DNA of 64,000 nucleotides from a virus, in IMG/VR virus record IMGVR_UViG_3300023179_009503, positions 1 through 64,000 of that record; one strand, written 5' to 3'. Under the pieces are notes generated by a model. The model was given only the letters and a program-made list of their open reading frames with translations. It searched no databases and had not been told where the DNA came from. The position numbers were made by a program, and so were the translations under genes. Of the stretch, positions 5,337-59,675 are shown piece by piece. Positions within the stretch are counted from its first letter, which is position 1. Every line of letters begins with the position of its first letter.

Positions 5337-5630
5337 CTATTTATCTGAAGTTACCGGTAAAGCACGTGTTTTATTCTTCTTATATTGTGCTTGACATACC
5401 TTATAAACAAAACTAGGTACTTTCTTTACTATGTCTATAATGTTTTGTTTCAACCCAAACTCAAATTTATCTACTGGTACTTCCCTAACATGCATATCTG
5501 GTAAAGACAAAAAGAAAAATGTGTTGTCTATTTTTTCCATAAAAACAAACAATTCACCAAGATATTTACCACCAGTAATTGCATAGACTATCTTCTTTTT
5601 AGGGTGTTTATTTAATAAGTTTAGGAGCAT
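5337..5630 (-). CDS. Hypothetical protein
   Basis: ORF overlapping the upstream gene end. Confidence 0.55.
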   Translation of the reverse strand: MLLNLLNKHPKKKIVYAITGGKYLGELFVFMEKIDNTFFFLSLPDMHVREVPVDKFEFGLKQNIIDIVKKVPSFVYKVCQAQYKKNKTRALPVTSDK

Positions 5631-9220: not shown

Positions 9221-9877
9221 TCAAGCATTTTCTGTAATTTTTTTTAAGCCTAGCTCAACTAATTTGCTAGCTTTCTTAGAATTATATAATCTAGTCCTAA
9301 AGACTTGGACATTATTATAGATGTCTTCACCGATAATAAATTTTACTATTTCGGCATTACATCCTTTTAATGTTTTTTCAAAGCTATTAAATCCTAGCAA
9401 CGTATATACATTAACGTTATGCTCTTTAAGATGTATGATAAAACTATGCTCATTGTTAGTTTTGTGAGATATATAATTTCTAACGTCTAAGTTGTTTTTT
9501 CTACAAAAACTATTTATAAAGACTAGCGACTCTTTAATACTCTTAAGTTGTTCATCGCTATCCGGATCCATGTTAATTTGTTTTTTGTTAAACAAAGTAT
9601 ATGATTTTATAGCTTTTAAAGAATAATAATAATCAATTGAAAAATATTTTTCGTCGGGGTATAAAGTGTACGGGGCTTTAAAAAAGTCTTCAACCTTAAT
9701 GTGTGGGTATTTCTTAAAAAAACTTGAAAGCTTTTTTAATGCAATAAAAAGCTTATCATCTATTTTTTCGAAATTTTTACGAAGCTTATACGGTAAGTCA
9801 CTATTTGATCTGGTAACTTTTAAATATGAATTATAAATGTGCTTTTCAAACTCGGTAATCAATTGTAATACTTCCAC
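9221..9877 (-). CDS. Probable helicase loader, gp59-like
   Basis: 218-aa basic/aromatic protein immediately upstream of gp32, as in T4. Confidence 0.5.
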   Translation of the reverse strand: MEVLQLITEFEKHIYNSYLKVTRSNSDLPYKLRKNFEKIDDKLFIALKKLSSFFKKYPHIKVEDFFKAPYTLYPDEKYFSIDYYYSLKAIKSYTLFNKKQINMDPDSDEQLKSIKESLVFINSFCRKNNLDVRNYISHKTNNEHSFIIHLKEHNVNVYTLLGFNSFEKTLKGCNAEIVKFIIGEDIYNNVQVFRTRLYNSKKASKLVELGLKKITENA

Positions 9878-10071
9878 TTAAATCTAGCTACTTGCTTCTT
9901 TAGTTTACGCAACACGCTGGGCTTATAAAAACATCTCTTAAATCTCAAATCCTCTAATACTCCTGATTTCAAAAACTCTCTTGAAAATCTTTTATACGCT
10001 TTATCGAAATAAACTTTGTCTGTACATTTCTTTCTATCTAGTGTTACTGACGCGTTAACTATTTTGCTCAT
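9859..10071 (-). CDS. rpsU: Ribosomal protein bS21 homolog
   Basis: FDKAYKRFSREFLKSGVLEDLRFKRCFYKPSVLRKLKK fits the bS21 pattern (ALRRFKR...G.L.E.R.R..Y.KP...RK); 70 aa, basic. Confidence 0.8.
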   Translation of the reverse strand: MSKIVNASVTLDRKKCTDKVYFDKAYKRFSREFLKSGVLEDLRFKRCFYKPSVLRKLKKQVARFKWKYYN

Positions 10072-11738: not shown

Positions 11739-12431
11739 TTACACAGAATCAATGTCACTATATTCCTCTAGGAATTTTTCTTGACTATTAACAAAATTTG
11801 AATCATCAAAGCTCAGCAACCCCGGAGAAGAATGAACGACCCATATAGGGACAACCCCTATTTTAAGCTTTTTATTGTTAGCATCAATACAGCTAGCTAT
11901 GTCATAATGATGAAATCTATAATTTTCATTAAACTTCCAATCTTTATTTAAATAACATTCTGTTTTAACGCTGATAAATAGGCCATCTATAATTGCTACA
12001 CGAGATGGTGTTGGGCCAAAATTTGTCATGCCTATCTGATCTTTATTAACTTTATGTGCTACCGCTCCTCTTAGATTACCACCATGAAACCCTCCACACA
12101 TTAAATGCCAAAGAGCGGGTTGCTTGATAACAGGATTAAGGCCACCTGCTATACCTACTATATCAAACGTTTGATGCGCATTTTCAAGCTTGCTTACAAC
12201 ACCTAAATCATCAACATAAACATCATCATGAAGAAAAACAATATTATCAAATTCTTCTGCATGAAGCTTGAGAGTATTATTATATTTCTCGCTTAATCCA
12301 ATTTTATTATTTGTATCGTAAAAAATATCGAACTTCCAAGGTGTCGTACTTTTTATTCTTGAAAGTGACTTAAACGCGTACGTTTCTTCTGCTTCTTTAC
12401 ATTTAGTGCAAAAATAAAAAGCTGTTTTCAC
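11739..12431 (-). CDS. GT-A fold glycosyltransferase
   Basis: LSEKYN, VFLHDDV, IVGIAG, IDGLF, FHHYD motifs. Confidence 0.8.
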   Translation of the reverse strand: MKTAFYFCTKCKEAEETYAFKSLSRIKSTTPWKFDIFYDTNNKIGLSEKYNNTLKLHAEEFDNIVFLHDDVYVDDLGVVSKLENAHQTFDIVGIAGGLNPVIKQPALWHLMCGGFHGGNLRGAVAHKVNKDQIGMTNFGPTPSRVAIIDGLFISVKTECYLNKDWKFNENYRFHHYDIASCIDANNKKLKIGVVPIWVVHSSPGLLSFDDSNFVNSQEKFLEEYSDIDSV

Positions 12432-13111
12432 GGGGTAAAAAACGGTGAGTTGGTTTGAAATACGCCTACCGAAGTAATACCTTCTTTAGTTAGAAGATAC
12501 AAAACACCTTCCTCAAGAGCTACAAATTCCTGCTCTTTTAAAGAAGAAAAATCGTTTGACAAAAAATTTGCAAATACAGTACTCCCGGATCTAGCAAGAA
12601 ATATATTTGCAGATTTTTGATTATAAATCCATAAACCGAACGTACCTTTTAGCTTTGACAACGCTTTACAAATTCCTGCAACCTCATCATCTAAATCTTT
12701 AACATGCTGGTTAATAAATGGAGCTATAACCGAAGAATCCACCACATTATAAGCTTTCTTATCTTTAATTTGTTTCTTAAGTTCTTTATCGTTTGTTAAA
12801 ACACCGTTATGTGCGATTATCCAATCTTTGTATTGAAATGGATGTGATGTGTTAGGTGAAAATGCTCTTTTCTCAGAAGTAGGTGCTTGTGTATGGCCTA
12901 AAAAAGTATCAAAATCTGTTATACTCTTCTTTTTTTTGCCATACTCTATTACTAATTTATTAGATAAATTAGCGGTACCTGGTGTCTTTAAAATAGCATG
13001 AAGTTTCGATCCAATTAATAAACCTCCATAAGAAAACGTACCACGTTTCTTATTGCTCTTATAAAGCTTTACATAAGTTGTAAAGTCTTTAGAACCAAAT
13101 ATACCGCAAAT
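12428..13111 (-). CDS. Class II (Ntn) glutamine amidotransferase with AUU start
   Basis: Frame is open 366 nt beyond the track start: (M)CGIFGS...RG...GHTQAPT...HPF...AHNGVL...VDS; ATT at 13111 lies 8 nt after AGGAGG. Confidence 0.88.
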   Translation of the reverse strand: MCGIFGSKDFTTYVKLYKSNKKRGTFSYGGLLIGSKLHAILKTPGTANLSNKLVIEYGKKKKSITDFDTFLGHTQAPTSEKRAFSPNTSHPFQYKDWIIAHNGVLTNDKELKKQIKDKKAYNVVDSSVIAPFINQHVKDLDDEVAGICKALSKLKGTFGLWIYNQKSANIFLARSGSTVFANFLSNDFSSLKEQEFVALEEGVLYLLTKEGITSVGVFQTNSPFFTP

Positions 13112-13119
13112 AGCTATAA

Positions 13120-13158
13120 CCTCCTGATTTATTATAATATAAAGAATAAATAATTCAA
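13120..13158. promoter_or_regulatory. Overlapping divergent promoters plus Shine-Dalgarno
   Basis: Minus strand: TTGAAT-N16-TATAAT, then AGGAGG; plus strand: TAAATA-N7-ATG of 13160. Confidence 0.7.
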
Positions 13159-13159
13159 G

Positions 13160-14062
13160 ATGAACAAAGATACAAAGCTCATTTTCGAAGCGTATTTAAC
13201 TAACAAACCTAAGGTTTTAAAAGAAGCACCTATATATGCTGACGAACTAGGGTATACCGGCGATATTGAAAAGGCACCTGGCAAAGGCTATGGAATAGGT
13301 AAAACAGCTGCAAAAGAAGGTAAAACAAAAGCAGAAATTGCAAACCGTTTACTTCAAGCAATACAGACAAAGCTCTTTAAACCTGCAGTTCATACTATAG
13401 ATGGTAAAGAATATAAACTTTATTATCCGGGATCAAAAATGAAATTTAGAACAGATCTAGAAAATTTAATTAAAAACGAACTCAAGCTCGGTGGTACTGA
13501 AGCAAGATACACTGCTAGAATAGTTGACAATTTGTTAAACGTTTTAAGAGTAGATGTAGAAGGTGGTGCAGCGGCTAGCCCTGCGCAAGTCAAGCAAGCT
13601 GTTACCTCTGGAGTAGAGGGTAAGAAAGTAGTTGCTCCCGGCACACCTGGTACTTCACCTGCAACACCAGCTCCTACAACAAATACTTTTATAAAAAACG
13701 ATGTTAGGTTCATTAAAGAATGGATGCCAATCTTTAATGAATTGCCTGATGAAATAACTGTATCTGGTGGTGGCGATATTTATACTTCACCTGAGCTTAA
13801 AAAAGAAGTAGAAGAGGCTATTATTCGCGCTTATGATGAAAAGATGGCTAAAGACAGCGAAATGGTACAGGACTTTATTGATTCATTAAAATTTAAAAAT
13901 AGTTTTTCACCTTCATCTGAGAAAAAAGAAGGCGAGGGTACCGGTGAAGTGGAAACTGTAGAAGAATATCCTGAAGAAGACGAACCTACTTCAATTGCAA
14001 GAGAGCTAGGCTATAAAGGCGGAAGAAGCTTCGACGAATTTGACAAATATAGTACTAATTAA
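13160..14062 (+). CDS. Hypothetical late protein, candidate internal head protein
   Basis: MNKDTKLIFEAY...VLKE-A leader; opposite orientation inside the early cluster. Confidence 0.65.
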   Translation: MNKDTKLIFEAYLTNKPKVLKEAPIYADELGYTGDIEKAPGKGYGIGKTAAKEGKTKAEIANRLLQAIQTKLFKPAVHTIDGKEYKLYYPGSKMKFRTDLENLIKNELKLGGTEARYTARIVDNLLNVLRVDVEGGAAASPAQVKQAVTSGVEGKKVVAPGTPGTSPATPAPTTNTFIKNDVRFIKEWMPIFNELPDEITVSGGGDIYTSPELKKEVEEAIIRAYDEKMAKDSEMVQDFIDSLKFKNSFSPSSEKKEGEGTGEVETVEEYPEEDEPTSIARELGYKGGRSFDEFDKYSTN

Positions 14063-14078: not shown

Positions 14079-14834
14079 TTACTTAATCATCTTACACTTA
14101 TATTTTTCCCAAGGTATTGAGATTTTATAAGGTAACGGGTCTATATAACCGGAATCTATAAAACCTTTTATTCTCAAAGAGCACGCTGTACACTCTCCAC
14201 AAGCAATTTGCTCGCCTTCATAACATGTCCATGTTTCTGCAAAATTAACACCTAATTTTACGCCTAATTTTACTATATCAGCCTTAGATTTTTCAATAAG
14301 CGGTGCTTGTACTGTAATTCTGTTTCTACGATTAAGAGCTGTGAGTTTATTTATTTGAGTTAAAAATTCCTTACTCCCATCCCAATATCCTGCAACACTA
14401 TCAGCTTGTGCTGCACCGTGAAAAATAGTGGAAGCTCCTACATTTTCAGCTATAGCCAGGCTAATACCAAGCATCATTGTATTTCTAAATGGAACGTAAT
14501 TTACTGTCTGTGGATCTCCCATTACATCTTTTGCTTTAGCAACAGGAATTTTAGTATTGAGAAGGGAAGAAATAGAGCAAATATCCTTAAAAAACGGTAA
14601 TGTAATTATTTTATGTATAACGTTCTTTTCACCAATTTTATTTGCAACAGCAGCTAACTGGCGTGTTGCATACACTAATTCCCTGCTATGCTTTTGTCCA
14701 TAACTAAAGCTAACAGCTATAACTTTGTCGTATCTATCTGCAGCAAGATGTAACAATACTGAGCTATCCATCCCCCCGCTAATAGGAACAACTACTTTAC
14801 TCGACTGGCTCTTCTTGTTCTTGGTCGTTGGCAT
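14079..14834 (-). CDS. queC: 7-cyano-7-deazaguanine synthase
   Basis: SGGMDS; YGQKH; YVPFRN; TWTCY...CGECTAC. Confidence 0.95.
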   Translation of the reverse strand: MPTTKNKKSQSSKVVVPISGGMDSSVLLHLAADRYDKVIAVSFSYGQKHSRELVYATRQLAAVANKIGEKNVIHKIITLPFFKDICSISSLLNTKIPVAKAKDVMGDPQTVNYVPFRNTMMLGISLAIAENVGASTIFHGAAQADSVAGYWDGSKEFLTQINKLTALNRRNRITVQAPLIEKSKADIVKLGVKLGVNFAETWTCYEGEQIACGECTACSLRIKGFIDSGYIDPLPYKISIPWEKYKCKMIK

Positions 14835-36483: not shown

Positions 36484-37158
36484 ATGATATACGAGAGTAC
36501 AAAGATTATTGAGTTAGGTTCTTGCGCATTTAGACAATGGAAAGCTAATCATAGCCATTGCAAGTTTATTCATGGTTATAGATTACAAGCTAAATTTTGG
36601 TTTGGATGTACAAATTTAGATGATAAAAATTGGGTAGTCGATTTCGGTGGTTTAGATGATTTAAAAAAAATACTACAAAAACAATTTGATCATACATTAT
36701 GTGTAGCTGCAGATGATCCTTTACTAGAAGGATTTAAAACTTTACATACTGCAGGTGGCTGTGATTTGAGAATAATGGAAGGCGGTGTTGGTATAGAAAA
36801 GACCGCTGAATGGTGTTTTAACACAGCTAATGCTTATTGTCAAACCATAACAAGTGGAAGATGTTGGGTTAATAAAGTAGAAGTTTGGGAACATGAAAAA
36901 AACTCTGCAATTGTTTCTTTTCAAAACTCACAAAACTCTGAATTACCTCCTCCTGTACACGCAGCTTTTCAACGCCCGGTAAATCCAATTCGAGAAACTA
37001 TTAATGAAATAGAAAAAGAAACAGGCGTACCTATTTCGAACGTTTTAAAACAGATTCCTGTAAGCAATACTCAAGCTGGTACAAGACCTGCGCCATTAAA
37101 GAACCCTAAATCCGAAGGATATTCGAATTTATTCGGCGGTACAAGCTGGGGTTCATGA
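36484..37158 (+). CDS. queD: 6-carboxytetrahydropterin synthase with C-terminal extension
   Basis: HCKFIHGY; WVVDFG; FDH; VEVWEHEKNSA. Confidence 0.92.
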   Translation: MIYESTKIIELGSCAFRQWKANHSHCKFIHGYRLQAKFWFGCTNLDDKNWVVDFGGLDDLKKILQKQFDHTLCVAADDPLLEGFKTLHTAGGCDLRIMEGGVGIEKTAEWCFNTANAYCQTITSGRCWVNKVEVWEHEKNSAIVSFQNSQNSELPPPVHAAFQRPVNPIRETINEIEKETGVPISNVLKQIPVSNTQAGTRPAPLKNPKSEGYSNLFGGTSWGS

Positions 37159-55479: not shown

Positions 55480-56394
55480 TTACTGCCTTACAGTCTTAGT
55501 AAAATACTTATATTCGTCTATTAGCGCTTTATCTAGAAGACTATAGTTACTAGCTCTTGTAGGGTTAATATCAATACCACCGCGCCTTACGTATAGACAG
55601 CTCACAACAAGCTCTTCAGGTTTAAACAGTCTAAATAAACGCATATAAATTGTTTCACAAATCTCCTCATGAAAATGACATTCATCTCTAAAAGAAACAA
55701 TATATTGTAAAAGAGATGTTTGATTAATCTCATACTTGCCTTTATAGTGAATATAAACATCGCCCCAATCAGGTTGAGAAGTAACTCTACAATTACTCTT
55801 TAATAAAGCAGAATGAAATCTTTGTACTTTAGCTTCAGGGATCTCTATTGCAGATAAAATAGAAGGATCCTCTACATATGATCTAGATTGTATCATAGTA
55901 ACATCAATATTATTTTCAAGTGTAGGATAATCTTTATTGCTAAATACCGGTGGATAATACAAATCGTCTGACACCGCAGCCGTAGATCTTACATATACTT
56001 TGACATCCGTCTCAAGTAAACTGGACAAATCCTTTGCAATAGTACTCTGTAATTCGTTTAATACTTGAATCATGTTACCTTTAAATACTTGCATATTAAA
56101 AGAATTCATGTATAGCTTAATAGACTTTGATTCTACAATATACTTGTTCTTAGCAGGATAAACTATTTTAGCAATTGCTGCAATAGGCATACCTTCCTGT
56201 GTTAAGCAAGAAACTTCATATGCATTCCAAATATCAAAACCACCGAAAGGTGCGTTTTCGTCTGTGATATCTAAATGCTTACGATTGTTGATTCTTGGCT
56301 CACGTACTAAAAGTGAAGGATCATAAGTCGACTTATACCCTGTTACTTTACCTAAATGCTTCGAAATGTTGCTATTGTCTAATACCTTGTTCAT
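55480..56394 (-). CDS. queF: NADPH-dependent preQ0 reductase (two-domain type)
   Basis: DIWNAYEVS; VESKSIKLY; LKSNCRVTSQPDWG; FHEEICE; YVRRGGIDINP. Confidence 0.95.
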   Translation of the reverse strand: MNKVLDNSNISKHLGKVTGYKSTYDPSLLVREPRINNRKHLDITDENAPFGGFDIWNAYEVSCLTQEGMPIAAIAKIVYPAKNKYIVESKSIKLYMNSFNMQVFKGNMIQVLNELQSTIAKDLSSLLETDVKVYVRSTAAVSDDLYYPPVFSNKDYPTLENNIDVTMIQSRSYVEDPSILSAIEIPEAKVQRFHSALLKSNCRVTSQPDWGDVYIHYKGKYEINQTSLLQYIVSFRDECHFHEEICETIYMRLFRLFKPEELVVSCLYVRRGGIDINPTRASNYSLLDKALIDEYKYFTKTVRQ

Positions 56395-56959
56395 ATAGTT
56401 TAATTTTAATCTGTTCTAAGCGTTCTTCAACTGTTCCTTTTAAAATAGTTACTCTATCTCTCCATGAAGGTTGATTCAAATAATGATCTTCGTATAAATC
56501 TATAATAGCATTCCTAAACTCAATATCAGTACTTCTCTCTCCGTCATCAACTAACTTAATTTCATGAGGATCAGGATAAAAAATAATATCATACTCATTA
56601 TAAAATCTGTACCAATAATGAACTGCTTGTTGCCATACTTGCTGAGTTACTAATTTCTTTTTAAAGAAATATTCTGTATAAACCAACCCGTCAAGCAGAC
56701 ATCTATCATGAACAACGCCTTTACACCAATCGCCCATACCCCTACATGTAAATAAATTCTTTAGTTCTTCGTTTATAATTAACAATTGAGTTATATCATT
56801 AGCACCTTCTTCATTAATAGGTATATTACATTCATCTCTTATTTTTCTTGTAACTTCATCAATATAAAAGAATTTATCAAAAATACCACCACTACTCTTC
56901 ATTAATTTAAGCAAAGTAGTCTTGCCCGAACATTGCGGCCCAGTAAACGTAATATTCAT
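56372..56959 (-). CDS. P-loop nucleotide-kinase-like protein (AAA_28)
   Basis: TGPQCSGKTT; DRCLLDGLVY; DDGERS; GTVEER. Confidence 0.8.
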   Translation of the reverse strand: MNITFTGPQCSGKTTLLKLMKSSGGIFDKFFYIDEVTRKIRDECNIPINEEGANDITQLLIINEELKNLFTCRGMGDWCKGVVHDRCLLDGLVYTEYFFKKKLVTQQVWQQAVHYWYRFYNEYDIIFYPDPHEIKLVDDGERSTDIEFRNAIIDLYEDHYLNQPSWRDRVTILKGTVEERLEQIKIKLYEQGIRQ

Positions 56960-56981
56960 TAAACTATTATATACTAAGAAC

Positions 56982-57329
56982 TTACTTACACCACTTTTTT
57001 CTTTTAACTATTTCTGCAATAATACAATAAACAGAAGTATCACTAAAAGCATCAAATATAGGCTCATTAGCTGACTCAAATGTCTTTTTACGTAGAACTA
57101 AATTAATTAGACGTTGTATTTTATCATTTAATCTTACCACTATAGCGGATATTGATGCAACAATATCTTCTTTTTTATGAAGATCTGAACCAAGACTTAT
57201 ATTATGCGGGCCGTAGTCAAATTGCTTTTTGCAAAATGTTTCATATTGCTCGCGTTGAATTTTTTTAAATTCTTCACAAGTCTCAGGATACGTGGCTTCA
57301 ACGCTCTTAATATAGTCTTCCGGATTCAC
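56982..57329 (-). CDS. Nucleotide-modification-associated domain 1 (Nmad1/DUF1599; all-alpha)
   Basis: KKQFDYG; RLNDKIQRL; E...DAFSD..VY. Confidence 0.75.
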   Translation of the reverse strand: MNPEDYIKSVEATYPETCEEFKKIQREQYETFCKKQFDYGPHNISLGSDLHKKEDIVASISAIVVRLNDKIQRLINLVLRKKTFESANEPIFDAFSDTSVYCIIAEIVKRKKWCK

Positions 57330-58297
57330 AATCTTACCCCGTAACCAACTTTACTTAAACTAAGAGTATTTAAATTGCAACCCCCCGCATAACTAATAGC
57401 GCTTTGCAAGTCCTGTGTAATTTCTAAAAGCTTTTCTTCGTAAGTAAAAGAATCGGTTTCCATAAGCTTCATTGTACCTTCAATGTTCTTTTTATCCATC
57501 TTATTGTGTATGCTAGCAGATCCGTAGTACTGTTTATATCGTCGTCCAGAAGCGTCTTTTACTACCGGTGCGGGGCTATCTGAACATGCAGCAAATATTG
57601 ACCCACACATAACTATCTTAGCTCCTGCAACTAAAGCTTTCGCTATATCACCATTACAGCGAACACCTCCATCCGCAATAATAGGTATATCAAAATTTGT
57701 TGCATCATTATTAGCACACTCCATAACACAACTAAACATTGGATAAGTAAATCCTGTTTTATCTTTTGTAGTACAAGCATAGCCGCCTCCTATACCAACC
57801 TTAACTGCATCAGCACCCGCCATAGCTAAATATTCTACCCCATTACGTGTTGCAACATTACCTGCAATTACTTTTGTGTTAGGCAAATTATCCTTAATTA
57901 TTTTAATTTGATCAGCGACTTTAGAGTGATGTCCGTGTGCGACATCTATAGTAATAAAATCCACTCTAAGCTTATGGTTACCTAAATTATTAATTAAAGC
58001 TTTATCTTTAAATTGTATTCCCACGCTAATTGAAACATTATTAAAACACGCCTCGTTTGCATCTCTGACAAATGCAAAAATATCATGATCAAACCTATGC
58101 ATAATGTAAAAATAATGCTTTGAATCTAACATTTGACAAGTATCAAAATCAACACAGCATTTCATATTCGCCGGTACCACTGGTAAGCGAAAGGTTTTAT
58201 CTAAAAAATTTACCTCCGTACTAATGTCTGCTCTTGTTCGAACAGAATTAAAGTTTGGCTTTAAAAAAACGTTTTCGTAATGTAAGGATATGTCCAT
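57326..58297 (-). CDS. guaC: GMP reductase
   Basis: VVPANM; YFYIMHRF; IDVAHGH; AGNV; KVGIGGGYACTT; IIADGG; YYGSAS; KKNIEG; no CBS domains. Confidence 0.85.
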   Translation of the reverse strand: MDISLHYENVFLKPNFNSVRTRADISTEVNFLDKTFRLPVVPANMKCCVDFDTCQMLDSKHYFYIMHRFDHDIFAFVRDANEACFNNVSISVGIQFKDKALINNLGNHKLRVDFITIDVAHGHHSKVADQIKIIKDNLPNTKVIAGNVATRNGVEYLAMAGADAVKVGIGGGYACTTKDKTGFTYPMFSCVMECANNDATNFDIPIIADGGVRCNGDIAKALVAGAKIVMCGSIFAACSDSPAPVVKDASGRRYKQYYGSASIHNKMDKKNIEGTMKLMETDSFTYEEKLLEITQDLQSAISYAGGCNLNTLSLSKVGYGVRL

Positions 58298-58866
58298 TAT
58301 TTTTCTAAGATTTTATAACCGGTAAATAAGCTTTTCCACAAATCAAATGCAACTTCATGTAACTTACTGTATACGTCTGGGAGTGTAAGATTTTCTATAC
58401 CTATACCCTGACTTAACAGAATTTCACCTGCATCTACCTCGGGTACTACTCTATGTATAACGCAACCTGCATGCTTATACCCTTCTAGGAACGCTCTCTC
58501 TTGCGGATTAAACCCTTTAAGAGAAGGGTACTTATCAATAAGACCGGGGTGTAGATTATAAATTTCGTATTTATTACAGATATCTTTAGGTATAATTCTC
58601 AGATAGCCGTGCAGAGTTATAACTGGATTACTAAATTGACTTAAAATATGCTCATAGCTTTCTACAGACGGTTTAGATTGCAACATATACCATATAGTCC
58701 TATTAAGTTTATGCTCCCTAAACGTGGTTGTAGTCAGCAAATCTTTATTAACACCATCTGTGGTCAAGCGGTTTGTAACAATTGCATCAGGGTAAATGCT
58801 AAGAGCATTACAAAGATTATTAATCTCTGTACCTGTTTGTGAAAAAAAAGCTATCCAAGGTCTCAT
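58297..58866 (-). CDS. PurN-like formyltransferase (candidate DpdN, preQ1 formyltransferase)
   Basis: FSQTGT; LHGYLRI; YNLHPG; GCVIHRV..EVDAGEI; adjacent to the DpdA-like gene. Confidence 0.8.
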   Translation of the reverse strand: MRPWIAFFSQTGTEINNLCNALSIYPDAIVTNRLTTDGVNKDLLTTTTFREHKLNRTIWYMLQSKPSVESYEHILSQFSNPVITLHGYLRIIPKDICNKYEIYNLHPGLIDKYPSLKGFNPQERAFLEGYKHAGCVIHRVVPEVDAGEILLSQGIGIENLTLPDVYSKLHEVAFDLWKSLFTGYKILEK

Positions 58867-59675
58867 CTTCTAATAATCTTTTTAAACATCGATGTATTAT
58901 ATTTGATTAATTCTAGCTGATCATCAGTAACTTGATGTGAAATTAGATCAGCTAACTTAGTAGTTGGCTTATTGCTTAAACCGTAATCAGCATCATATTT
59001 TAATCCGAATATTGCGCATACAATAGGATTACTAGTATCACAAGAGACAATATTGTGTATGTTTCTATCGACATAATAACGAAATTCTTTTGCTAAGGAG
59101 CAGCCTAAAAGATGATGAGGCTTGCTCCAATCCCATACATTACTATTTATTAAATCAGCTATAAAACGTTGCCGACCTGAACAATACCGCTCAAGATTTG
59201 TCTTACCGTACCCTGTAGTTTGATAATAACTAAAATCAAAACTAATAGCTATCATATCTGCGTTATCAGACATAAATTTGTAGCAATCAACCAAATCTTT
59301 CCAGGTTTTCCCTTGTACTGCGCCAATAGCTTTTGTATAAAAGCTCTGCTTTAATGAATCAGCTTTATCTTCAAAAGATCCCCAACTTTCTACGGTGCCG
59401 TCCGCATCTTCTAAAACATCCGGTACAATAAACATATTTGGTTTAATATCTAGCCCGGCTTTATAAAATTCTTCTGAATCAAACGCTTTGCCTAATTCAA
59501 ATATAGAGTTATCTAATAAAACCTCTCTATTATAAGTATCTCTTGCTGACTTAAAATAATTGTAATATTCCAGGTAATCTTTAAATAGATGAACTAATGC
59601 ATAGTCAAAATCGTTGTAACTTCTTGATTCATTTAGTATAGATATAGGCGATTCGTGCGAAACTTTCATTAGCAT
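58863..59675 (-). CDS. dpdA: Divergent TGT-fold guanine transglycosylase (DpdA-like, probably DpdA3-type)
   Basis: LLDNSIFE; VPDV; AVQG; HHLLG; SCDTS.P; no C-terminal zinc motif; full Que pathway present. Confidence 0.75.
   Translation of the reverse strand: MLMKVSHESPISILNESRSYNDFDYALVHLFKDYLEYYNYFKSARDTYNREVLLDNSIFELGKAFDSEEFYKAGLDIKPNMFIVPDVLEDADGTVESWGSFEDKADSLKQSFYTKAIGAVQGKTWKDLVDCYKFMSDNADMIAISFDFSYYQTTGYGKTNLERYCSGRQRFIADLINSNVWDWSKPHHLLGCSLAKEFRYYVDRNIHNIVSCDTSNPIVCAIFGLKYDADYGLSNKPTTKLADLISHQVTDDQLELIKYNTSMFKKIIRR

Follow-up and report, generated by a model that had tools for sequence, protein, structure and literature searches.

The window analysed here is a 64,000-nt stretch of DNA (positions 1 to 64,000 of the IMG/VR record IMGVR_UViG_3300023179_009503), part of a 74.6-kb fragment, about 35% complete and about 33% G+C, of an uncultured freshwater phage distantly related to T4. 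Its minus strand carries a gene for a stand-alone protein with the class II, or N-terminal nucleophile (Ntn), glutamine-amidotransferase fold, whose frame opens on an ATT codon behind a strong Shine-Dalgarno (SD) sequence. Read 5′ to 3′, this strand has TTGAAT, 16 nt, TATAAT, AAATC, AGGAGG, TTATAGCT, ATT, TGC and GGT ATA TTT (Table 1), and from TATAAT onwards this is exactly the order given in a preliminary description of the window. The two hexamers form a sigma-70-like promoter at 13158..13131, with 10/12 matches to the consensus in a promoter scan, and the distance from the end of the −10 box to ATT is 18-20 nt across the clade to which the window belongs. The frame stays open for 227 codons, up to a TGA at 12430..12428, and contains no ATG, GTG or TTG before codon 123; the open reading frame (ORF) lister returned just its last 105 codons (12428..12745, from an internal GTG), both lengths being those first reported. 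If transcription begins about 7 nt past the −10 box, the transcript would start near 13124, on the SD itself, and carry a leader of about 13 nt. The junction between ATT and TGC also creates a +1-frame TTG that stands 9 nt from the SD, an unavoidable product of ATT followed by TGY; the same short frame, closed by TAA, recurs in the few relatives read by eye, owing to the Ser/Ala-Lys/Asn codons that come next.

Table 1. Features of the amidotransferase locus and of the rest of the window.
Feature	Position	Strand	Basis or remark
−35-like hexamer TTGAAT, amidotransferase promoter	13153..13158	-	promoter scan; overlaps the region just 5′ of the ATG of the divergent gene
−10 hexamer TATAAT	13131..13136	-	promoter scan; ends 19 nt before ATT
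Shine-Dalgarno AGGAGG (AGGAGGT including 13119)	13120..13125	-	8 nt before ATT; −11.0 kcal/mol duplex with ACCUCCUUA
ATT initiation codon	13109..13111	-	frame, comparative codon data
TGC, catalytic N-terminal Cys (Cys1 after removal of the initiator Met)	13106..13108	-	C2 invariance in alignments
Stand-alone class II (Ntn) glutamine-amidotransferase-fold gene, 227 codons + TGA	12428..13111	-	frame, Pfam, predicted fold
Out-of-frame TTG over the ATT-TGC junction, 6-codon frame MRYIWF then stop	13090..13110	-	read from the sequence
Glycosyltransferase-like gene (Glyco_tranf_2_5)	11739..12431	-	Pfam; GTGA overlap of its GTG with the amidotransferase stop
Divergent 300-aa gene	13160..14062	+	late-type ATAAATA (13146..13152) ends 7 nt before ATG
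QueC (7-cyano-7-deazaguanine synthase)	14079..14834	-	Pfam 191.5 bits; TIGR00364 167 bits, cut-off 150; conserved neighbour
Ribosomal protein bS21, phage-encoded	9859..10071	-	Ribosomal_S21 40.6 bits, cut-off 27; end ...RFKWKYYN
TAAATA-N5 gene starts	e.g. 3648, 3679, 31502, 33236, 50059, 55110		motif position
TATAAT-N6 gene starts	e.g. 5104, 6463, 18930, 45766		motif position
Operon: DpdA3-like transglycosylase, PurN-like formyltransferase, GMP reductase, small gene, AAA_28 kinase, two-domain QueF	55480..59675	-	
QueD	36484..37158		

No other SD in the window is as strong as that of the amidotransferase gene. Of the 32 copies of GGAGG on the two strands, only that at 13124 lies 5-10 nt before the start of a long frame forming a separate gene, which bears out the earlier remark that a full AGGAGG was noticed at this gene start alone. 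At the 83 other ORF starts, the SD duplex energy has a median of +0.1 kcal/mol and a best value of −8.2 kcal/mol, the latter poorly spaced. This second-best SD, AAAGGAG, belongs to a 97-aa ORF (5337..5630, minus strand) and lies 12 nt upstream of its ATG, a spacing that looks too long for normal function. No significant RNA structure was detected around the SD and AUU (z −1.3), giving no sign of a structural switch, and no tRNA genes were found in the window, hence no special initiator.

The class II motifs attributed to the protein on first reading were recovered by both GATase_6 (41.3 bits, cut-off 27) and GATase_7 (33.7 bits, cut-off 25) of Pfam, the matches spanning residues 67-175 and so crossing the internal GTG. 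NCBIfam listed glmS, purF, EgtC and asnB, all far under their equivalog cut-offs, and the closest solved sequences were those of the GlmS glutaminase domain, then GFAT. An AlphaFold model based on 33 homologues (pLDDT 92.6, pTM 0.90) has its first beta-strand from residue 3 and the four-layer alpha-beta-beta-alpha arrangement of Ntn enzymes; its top Foldseek match was the GlmS glutaminase domain (1xff, E 1e-12, TM 0.72), followed by PurF (1ao0) and EgtC (4zfk). With these enzymes the protein shares the fold, the N-terminal Cys, the oxyanion-hole Asn-Gly and the Asp to which the amino group of the substrate binds (N98, G99 and D123 in GlmS), AHNGV aligning to VHNGI and VDSS to TDTE. Cys2 is invariant in alignments of 33 and of 8 sequences and in all 161 loci inspected (see below); Arg23-Gly24, H101, N102, G103 and D125 are invariant in the family alignment. 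Unlike GlmS, the window protein has no synthase domain fused to it and is a separate chain of 227 aa; identity is only about 18%, and Gln stands where GlmS has Arg73. On these grounds, the product is a stand-alone Ntn amidotransferase or amidohydrolase. It has no cultured relative in INPHARED, where a nucleotide search was empty and a protein search gave just distant GlmS-like matches.

Comparison with relatives indicates that the ATT is a genuine start. A protein search gave 330 relatives, and the DNA of their loci was then fetched. The closest relatives (70-97% identity) have been called at 174-216 aa, their N-termini dropped by the gene callers, and those of less than about 62% identity start with MCGIFGS. 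ATT precedes TGC or TGT in 27/27 IMG/VR loci of 72-87% identity, each with GGAGG 8-10 nt upstream and a freely variable spacer, and ATT with an SD recurs in four or five additional lineages. In 42/42 distinct sequences of the ATT type, codon 1 reads ATT, never ATC or ATA, and synonymous variants occur at every other codon for an invariant residue: C2 (TGC/TGT), I4, F5, G6, Y17, R23, G24, F26, Y28 and G29. ATT thus behaves, in these alignments, as a fixed signal rather than as an isoleucine codon, and the same comparison excludes both an error and a private mutation. Codons 2-34 show purifying selection with abundant synonymous change. Since the N-terminal codons are constrained and ATT never varies, translation would start from ATT and the gene is not a pseudogene, as the preliminary description had held.

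That description had also argued that initiation must occur at this ATT because Ntn enzymes need Cys at position 2. The place of initiation is upheld by the comparative data; the argument is not, as some class II amidotransferases, for example PurF of B. subtilis, carry a propeptide that is cleaved. In the present family, an in-frame stop lies one codon 5′ of ATT in two loci (L002 and L005), four codons 5′ in the L003 group and 1-6 codons 5′ in many relatives, and there is therefore no upstream start with a propeptide. We accordingly give very little credence to a pseudogene, an assembly artefact or another start, whether upstream with a cleaved propeptide or at the internal GTG (12745) to yield the 105-aa fragment. 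The propeptides of some Ntn amidotransferases, the lack of a canonical start before codon 123 and the truncation of close relatives by gene callers would all fit such an explanation, but the same ATT is present in independent assemblies from dozens of metagenomes, selection acts on the protein from codon 2, and both the Pfam domain and the predicted fold cross the internal GTG, the model needing residues 2-122. The truncations point instead to mis-annotation of one entire clade of phage amidotransferases, which stands in dozens of public assemblies without its catalytic Cys.

To relate the start codon to its surroundings, we compared 161 loci, including the window, collected by four alignment-based and two pattern scans. 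The codon before the catalytic Cys is ATT in 55 and ATG in 106. Every one of the 55 ATT loci carries a strong SD, whose duplex with ACCUCCUUA has an energy between −8.7 and −13.6 kcal/mol (median −11.5), and a −10 box at 5-9 nt from the start is absent from them all. The SD is GGAGG, 8-10 nt 5′ of ATT, in the 50 loci of the first sample, and takes weaker forms (AAGGAG, GGAAGG) in 4/5 deeper loci, where the spacing was judged by eye. These five (L323, L335, L345, L347 and L351) belong to a deeper branch, 37-45% identical to the window protein, of 220-222 aa and with the motif GHNQAPTS, whose ATT forms have AAGGAG, AGGAGG or GGAAGG leaders; the branch also contains many perfectly leaderless ATG forms of the type TTGATT-N17-TATAAT-N6-ATG.

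The ATG loci present the opposite picture, with a median SD energy of +0.9 kcal/mol and no well-spaced SD in any of the 106. ATG is confined to SD-less homologues whose −10 box abuts it: TA[TC]AAT ends 5-9 nt before ATG in 85/106, often behind TTGATT-N17, which is a leaderless layout. The purine-rich leaders of a few ATG loci are either mis-spaced (GGAGGAG or GAGGAG, 13-15 nt 5′, in L084 and L089) or weak (L325-L328). L084 and L089, one of them 91% identical to a protein of the ATT type, may be intermediates between the two designs. The same exclusivity was seen in both directions of search. A pattern scan for ATT that disregarded the SD returned 27 family members, 27/27 with GGAGG, and an IMG/VR scan for GGAGG-N5-11-ATG-TGY-GSN-ATH-TTY-GG gave 19 matches, all of them other amidotransferases of ≤30% identity, with no SD+ATG member of the family.

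A maximum-likelihood tree of 160 proteins, with residue 1 left out, places 11 start-codon changes in the family. Well-supported branches supply seven independent contrasts, a minimum for the number of changes, and the SD changed in the same direction in 5-6 of them and in the opposite direction in none (p ~0.03). The family resembles a natural evolution experiment, in which leaderless AUG and strong SD+AUU have replaced one another several times, with no case of strong SD+AUG observed. SD+AUG lies one mutation away and is never seen; it is therefore selected against, and the loci indicate that selection favours the pair SD+ATT and disfavours SD+ATG. We take this as comparative evidence that start-codon strength is traded against SD strength under selection. 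It could be argued that ATT has no regulatory role and reflects relaxed constraint after the gain of a strong SD, ATG having drifted to ATT under A+T pressure. The low G+C content of the genome (~33%) is compatible with such drift, as is the ability of strong SDs to support near-cognate initiation (PMC5499595). Drift, however, predicts a mixture of ATG, ATT, ATA, GTG and TTG behind the SD, whereas 55/55 are ATT, and it leaves unexplained why SD+ATG at a functional spacing is never seen though one mutation off; the repeated coupled changes of SD and start also indicate selection. We regard drift as improbable, if a little less so than a defective or misplaced start.

The ATG layout of the family is also that of many other genes in the window. 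Seven genes have a TATAAT whose end is 6-7 nt from the start codon, and 10 have a TAAATA whose end is 5 nt from it, where about 0.1 per position would be expected, and both early and late transcripts of this phage look leaderless by default. Taken together, the loci describe two mutually exclusive initiation designs in this phage group, leaderless or near-leaderless AUG on the one hand and SD-led AUU on the other.

An SD that stands alone among SD-less genes recalls rpsU of Flavobacterium johnsoniae, the sole SD-bearing gene there, which is read by ribosomes lacking bS21 (PMC9976891), and the window phage encodes a bS21 of its own, 2.4 kb downstream of the amidotransferase gene. Throughout the ATT clade and in certain ATG phages this bS21 occupies the same syntenic site, and on other large contigs it lies elsewhere; it might influence how SDs are used. 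A correlation with the ATT form was rejected, since bS21 is present in both forms and was not found on an ATT-bearing 79-kb contig (36% complete). A search of genomes for relatives of bS21, made for host identification, gave no matches, and papers on pelagimyophages mention S21 with the amidotransferase gene absent from their text.

These features raise the question of whether the SD-led AUU is read mainly by special ribosomes, the anti-SD being unavailable, as in Bacteroidia, or altered by the phage bS21, so that bS21 occupancy would act as a switch in the manner of rpsU. The amidotransferase is indeed the only gene of the window with a functional SD, the DpdA3 and formyltransferase genes of the window are closest (45% identity) to genes of a Flavobacterium phage, and freshwater myophages with bS21 have been predicted to infect Bacteroidetes (PMC9723584). 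The distribution of bS21 just described nevertheless speaks against a switch of this kind. The promoters read TTGnnn-N16/17-TATAAT, directly adjoining the start codon, unlike those of Bacteroidetes; the gene starts of the Flavobacterium phage itself look different. For a Bacteroidia host in general, the SD-less genes, bS21 and the likeness of DpdA and DpdN to those of a Flavobacterium phage count in favour, and the TATAAT-type promoters and leaderless design count against, the comparison with that phage being suggestive rather than decisive. The SD of rpsU is extended, with a reported requirement of less than −13 kcal/mol, compared with −11.0 in the window, a family median of −11.5 and only 4/55 loci at or below −13 (the energy scales may differ from those of the paper), and no mention of a non-canonical rpsU start was found. 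Finally, such a switch leaves the requirement for AUU unexplained. We therefore consider it doubtful, although more plausible than drift.

The explanation we favour, with good confidence, is that the locus holds an intact gene of the Ntn amidotransferase fold that is initiated at AUU behind a strong SD, the weak start having been selected to offset the SD, with initiation probably antagonised by IF3. The sigma-70-like promoter would produce a transcript whose short leader begins at the SD; GGAGGU would pair with the tail of 16S rRNA and set AUU in the P site, where the initiator tRNA would decode it through a third-base mismatch, and removal of formyl-methionine would free the catalytic Cys. 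On leaderless mRNAs, the 5′ AUG also serves as the signal for ribosome binding and is irreplaceable, and IF3 antagonises this route (PMC4611024). IF3 likewise discriminates against AUU, as in infC and pcnB (PMC5499595), and in S. aureus conserved AUU or AUA starts, accompanied by extended SDs, yield about 10% of the output of AUG (PMC13009471). A leaderless amidotransferase mRNA would thus demand AUG, and once a leader and a strong SD are present, selection would hold the start codon weak. On this reasoning, the gene needs only a modest output, which AUU would keep low in those lineages that have gained a leader and a strong SD, and which probably stays within the class of IF3-antagonised initiation, like that of the other, leaderless genes of the phage. 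The deliberate translational control suggested in the preliminary description is supported in so far as selection acts for SD+ATT and against SD+ATG; we infer its sensitivity to IF3 from E. coli (PMC5499595, PMC4611024).

The setting would extend to the glycosyltransferase-like gene downstream. Its start overlaps the amidotransferase stop as ATGA in 152/161 loci (GTGA in the window), and it is probably coupled translationally to the amidotransferase, because of which the two enzymes would share one setting. As both designs would be sensitive to IF3, it may be the manner of initiation that is conserved, and not just the amount of product, in a phage that also encodes the ribosomal protein adjoining the anti-SD. 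Taken to its conclusion, this would make the SD-led AUU gene a sensor of the initiation state of the host (IF3 level or bS21 occupancy) that times two DNA-modification enzymes, IF3-antagonised initiation being the selected trait, attained through leaderless AUG in some lineages and SD+AUU in others. We consider this a tentative and rather unlikely extension, though less so than a bS21 switch.

Several points weigh against an AUU start tuned to offset its SD. The sensitivity to IF3 is transferred from E. coli. The canonical UUG one base 3′ of AUU, in another frame, should compete for the same SD, and the predicted transcription start leaves this SD at the very beginning of the mRNA, where it would have to function. 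Some of the start-codon changes may be due to recombination of a 5′ cassette rather than to new mutations: one upstream cassette, ...caggagaggagggtaacgct ATT, is common to three separate protein clades, and the independent events are therefore fewer than 11, with a sign test of only ~0.03. With regard to the enzyme, the proposed link to QueC is one of synteny. Moreover, the counterpart of GlmS Arg73, the Arg that binds the alpha-carboxylate of glutamine, is an invariant Gln75 throughout the family (12887..12889, minus strand; GHTQAPTS aligned to AHTRWATHG), so that the substrate may differ from free glutamine.

The combination of a weak non-canonical start and a strong SD is a known design, seen in infC, pcnB and S. 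aureus cvfC1; the phage amidotransferase case and its comparative pattern appear to be new, as we found no earlier report in the literature of AUU starts in phage amidotransferases, nor of a clean alternation with a leaderless AUG form. Like infC and pcnB of E. coli, the gene has an in-frame AUU as its only start behind an SD, conserved among homologues, and in those two genes AUU restricts expression and renders it IF3-sensitive (PMC5499595). It differs from them in encoding a phage enzyme rather than a translation factor, with no autoregulatory loop evident, and in having switched over evolution between AUU and leaderless AUG forms. The S. aureus genes cvfC1 (AUU), ccpN and infC (both AUA) similarly combine a conserved non-canonical start with an unusually strong, well-spaced SD (PMC13009471), but in a host where about 90% of genes have SDs, whereas here the SD is the sole one among SD-less, largely leaderless genes. 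A lone strong SD in an otherwise SD-free gene set, with bS21 involved, is the feature shared with rpsU of F. johnsoniae (PMC9976891), except that bS21 does not track the ATT form here. The ATG forms of the family, and many genes of the window phage, are comparable to leaderless mRNAs such as that of lambda cI, with a −10 box 5-7 nt before the start, and the amidotransferase of the window is the leadered alternative to this type. Initiation at AUU is also known from phage T4 itself, at gene 26*, where AUU provides a secondary start within a gene; in the window it is the gene's sole start.

The neighbourhood of the gene suggests a function in DNA modification. All loci share a syntenic block of QueC, a variable gene, the amidotransferase, the glycosyltransferase and the gp41 helicase, and the amidotransferase most likely partners QueC in 7-deazaguanine modification of DNA, for example by supplying ammonia. 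This is reminiscent of the Gat-QueC proteins of phage 9g and archaea, in which a class II amidotransferase is tied to QueC, the phage being one that modifies its DNA with 7-deazaguanines (PMC6884629). In the window, by contrast, the two proteins are unfused, with a divergent gene between them, and the match to the fused PHROG is weak (phrog_10428, E 6e-6); QueF and a DpdN-like formyltransferase also point to a preQ1 derivative and not to archaeosine. The operon at 55480..59675 suggests DNA with formyl-preQ1 or a relative: its DpdA3-like transglycosylase is 45% identical (E 1e-70, direct comparison) to DpdA of Flavobacterium phage immuto, and its PurN-like formyltransferase 45% identical to DpdN of the same phage. 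The Pfam TGT model gave no match to the DpdA gene of the window.

The divergent 300-aa gene between the amidotransferase and QueC has no match in Pfam, PHROG, NCBIfam or PDB. Other clades carry unrelated genes in its place and retain the short divergent promoter region. The phage also encodes two kinase-like proteins of the AAA_28 P-loop type.

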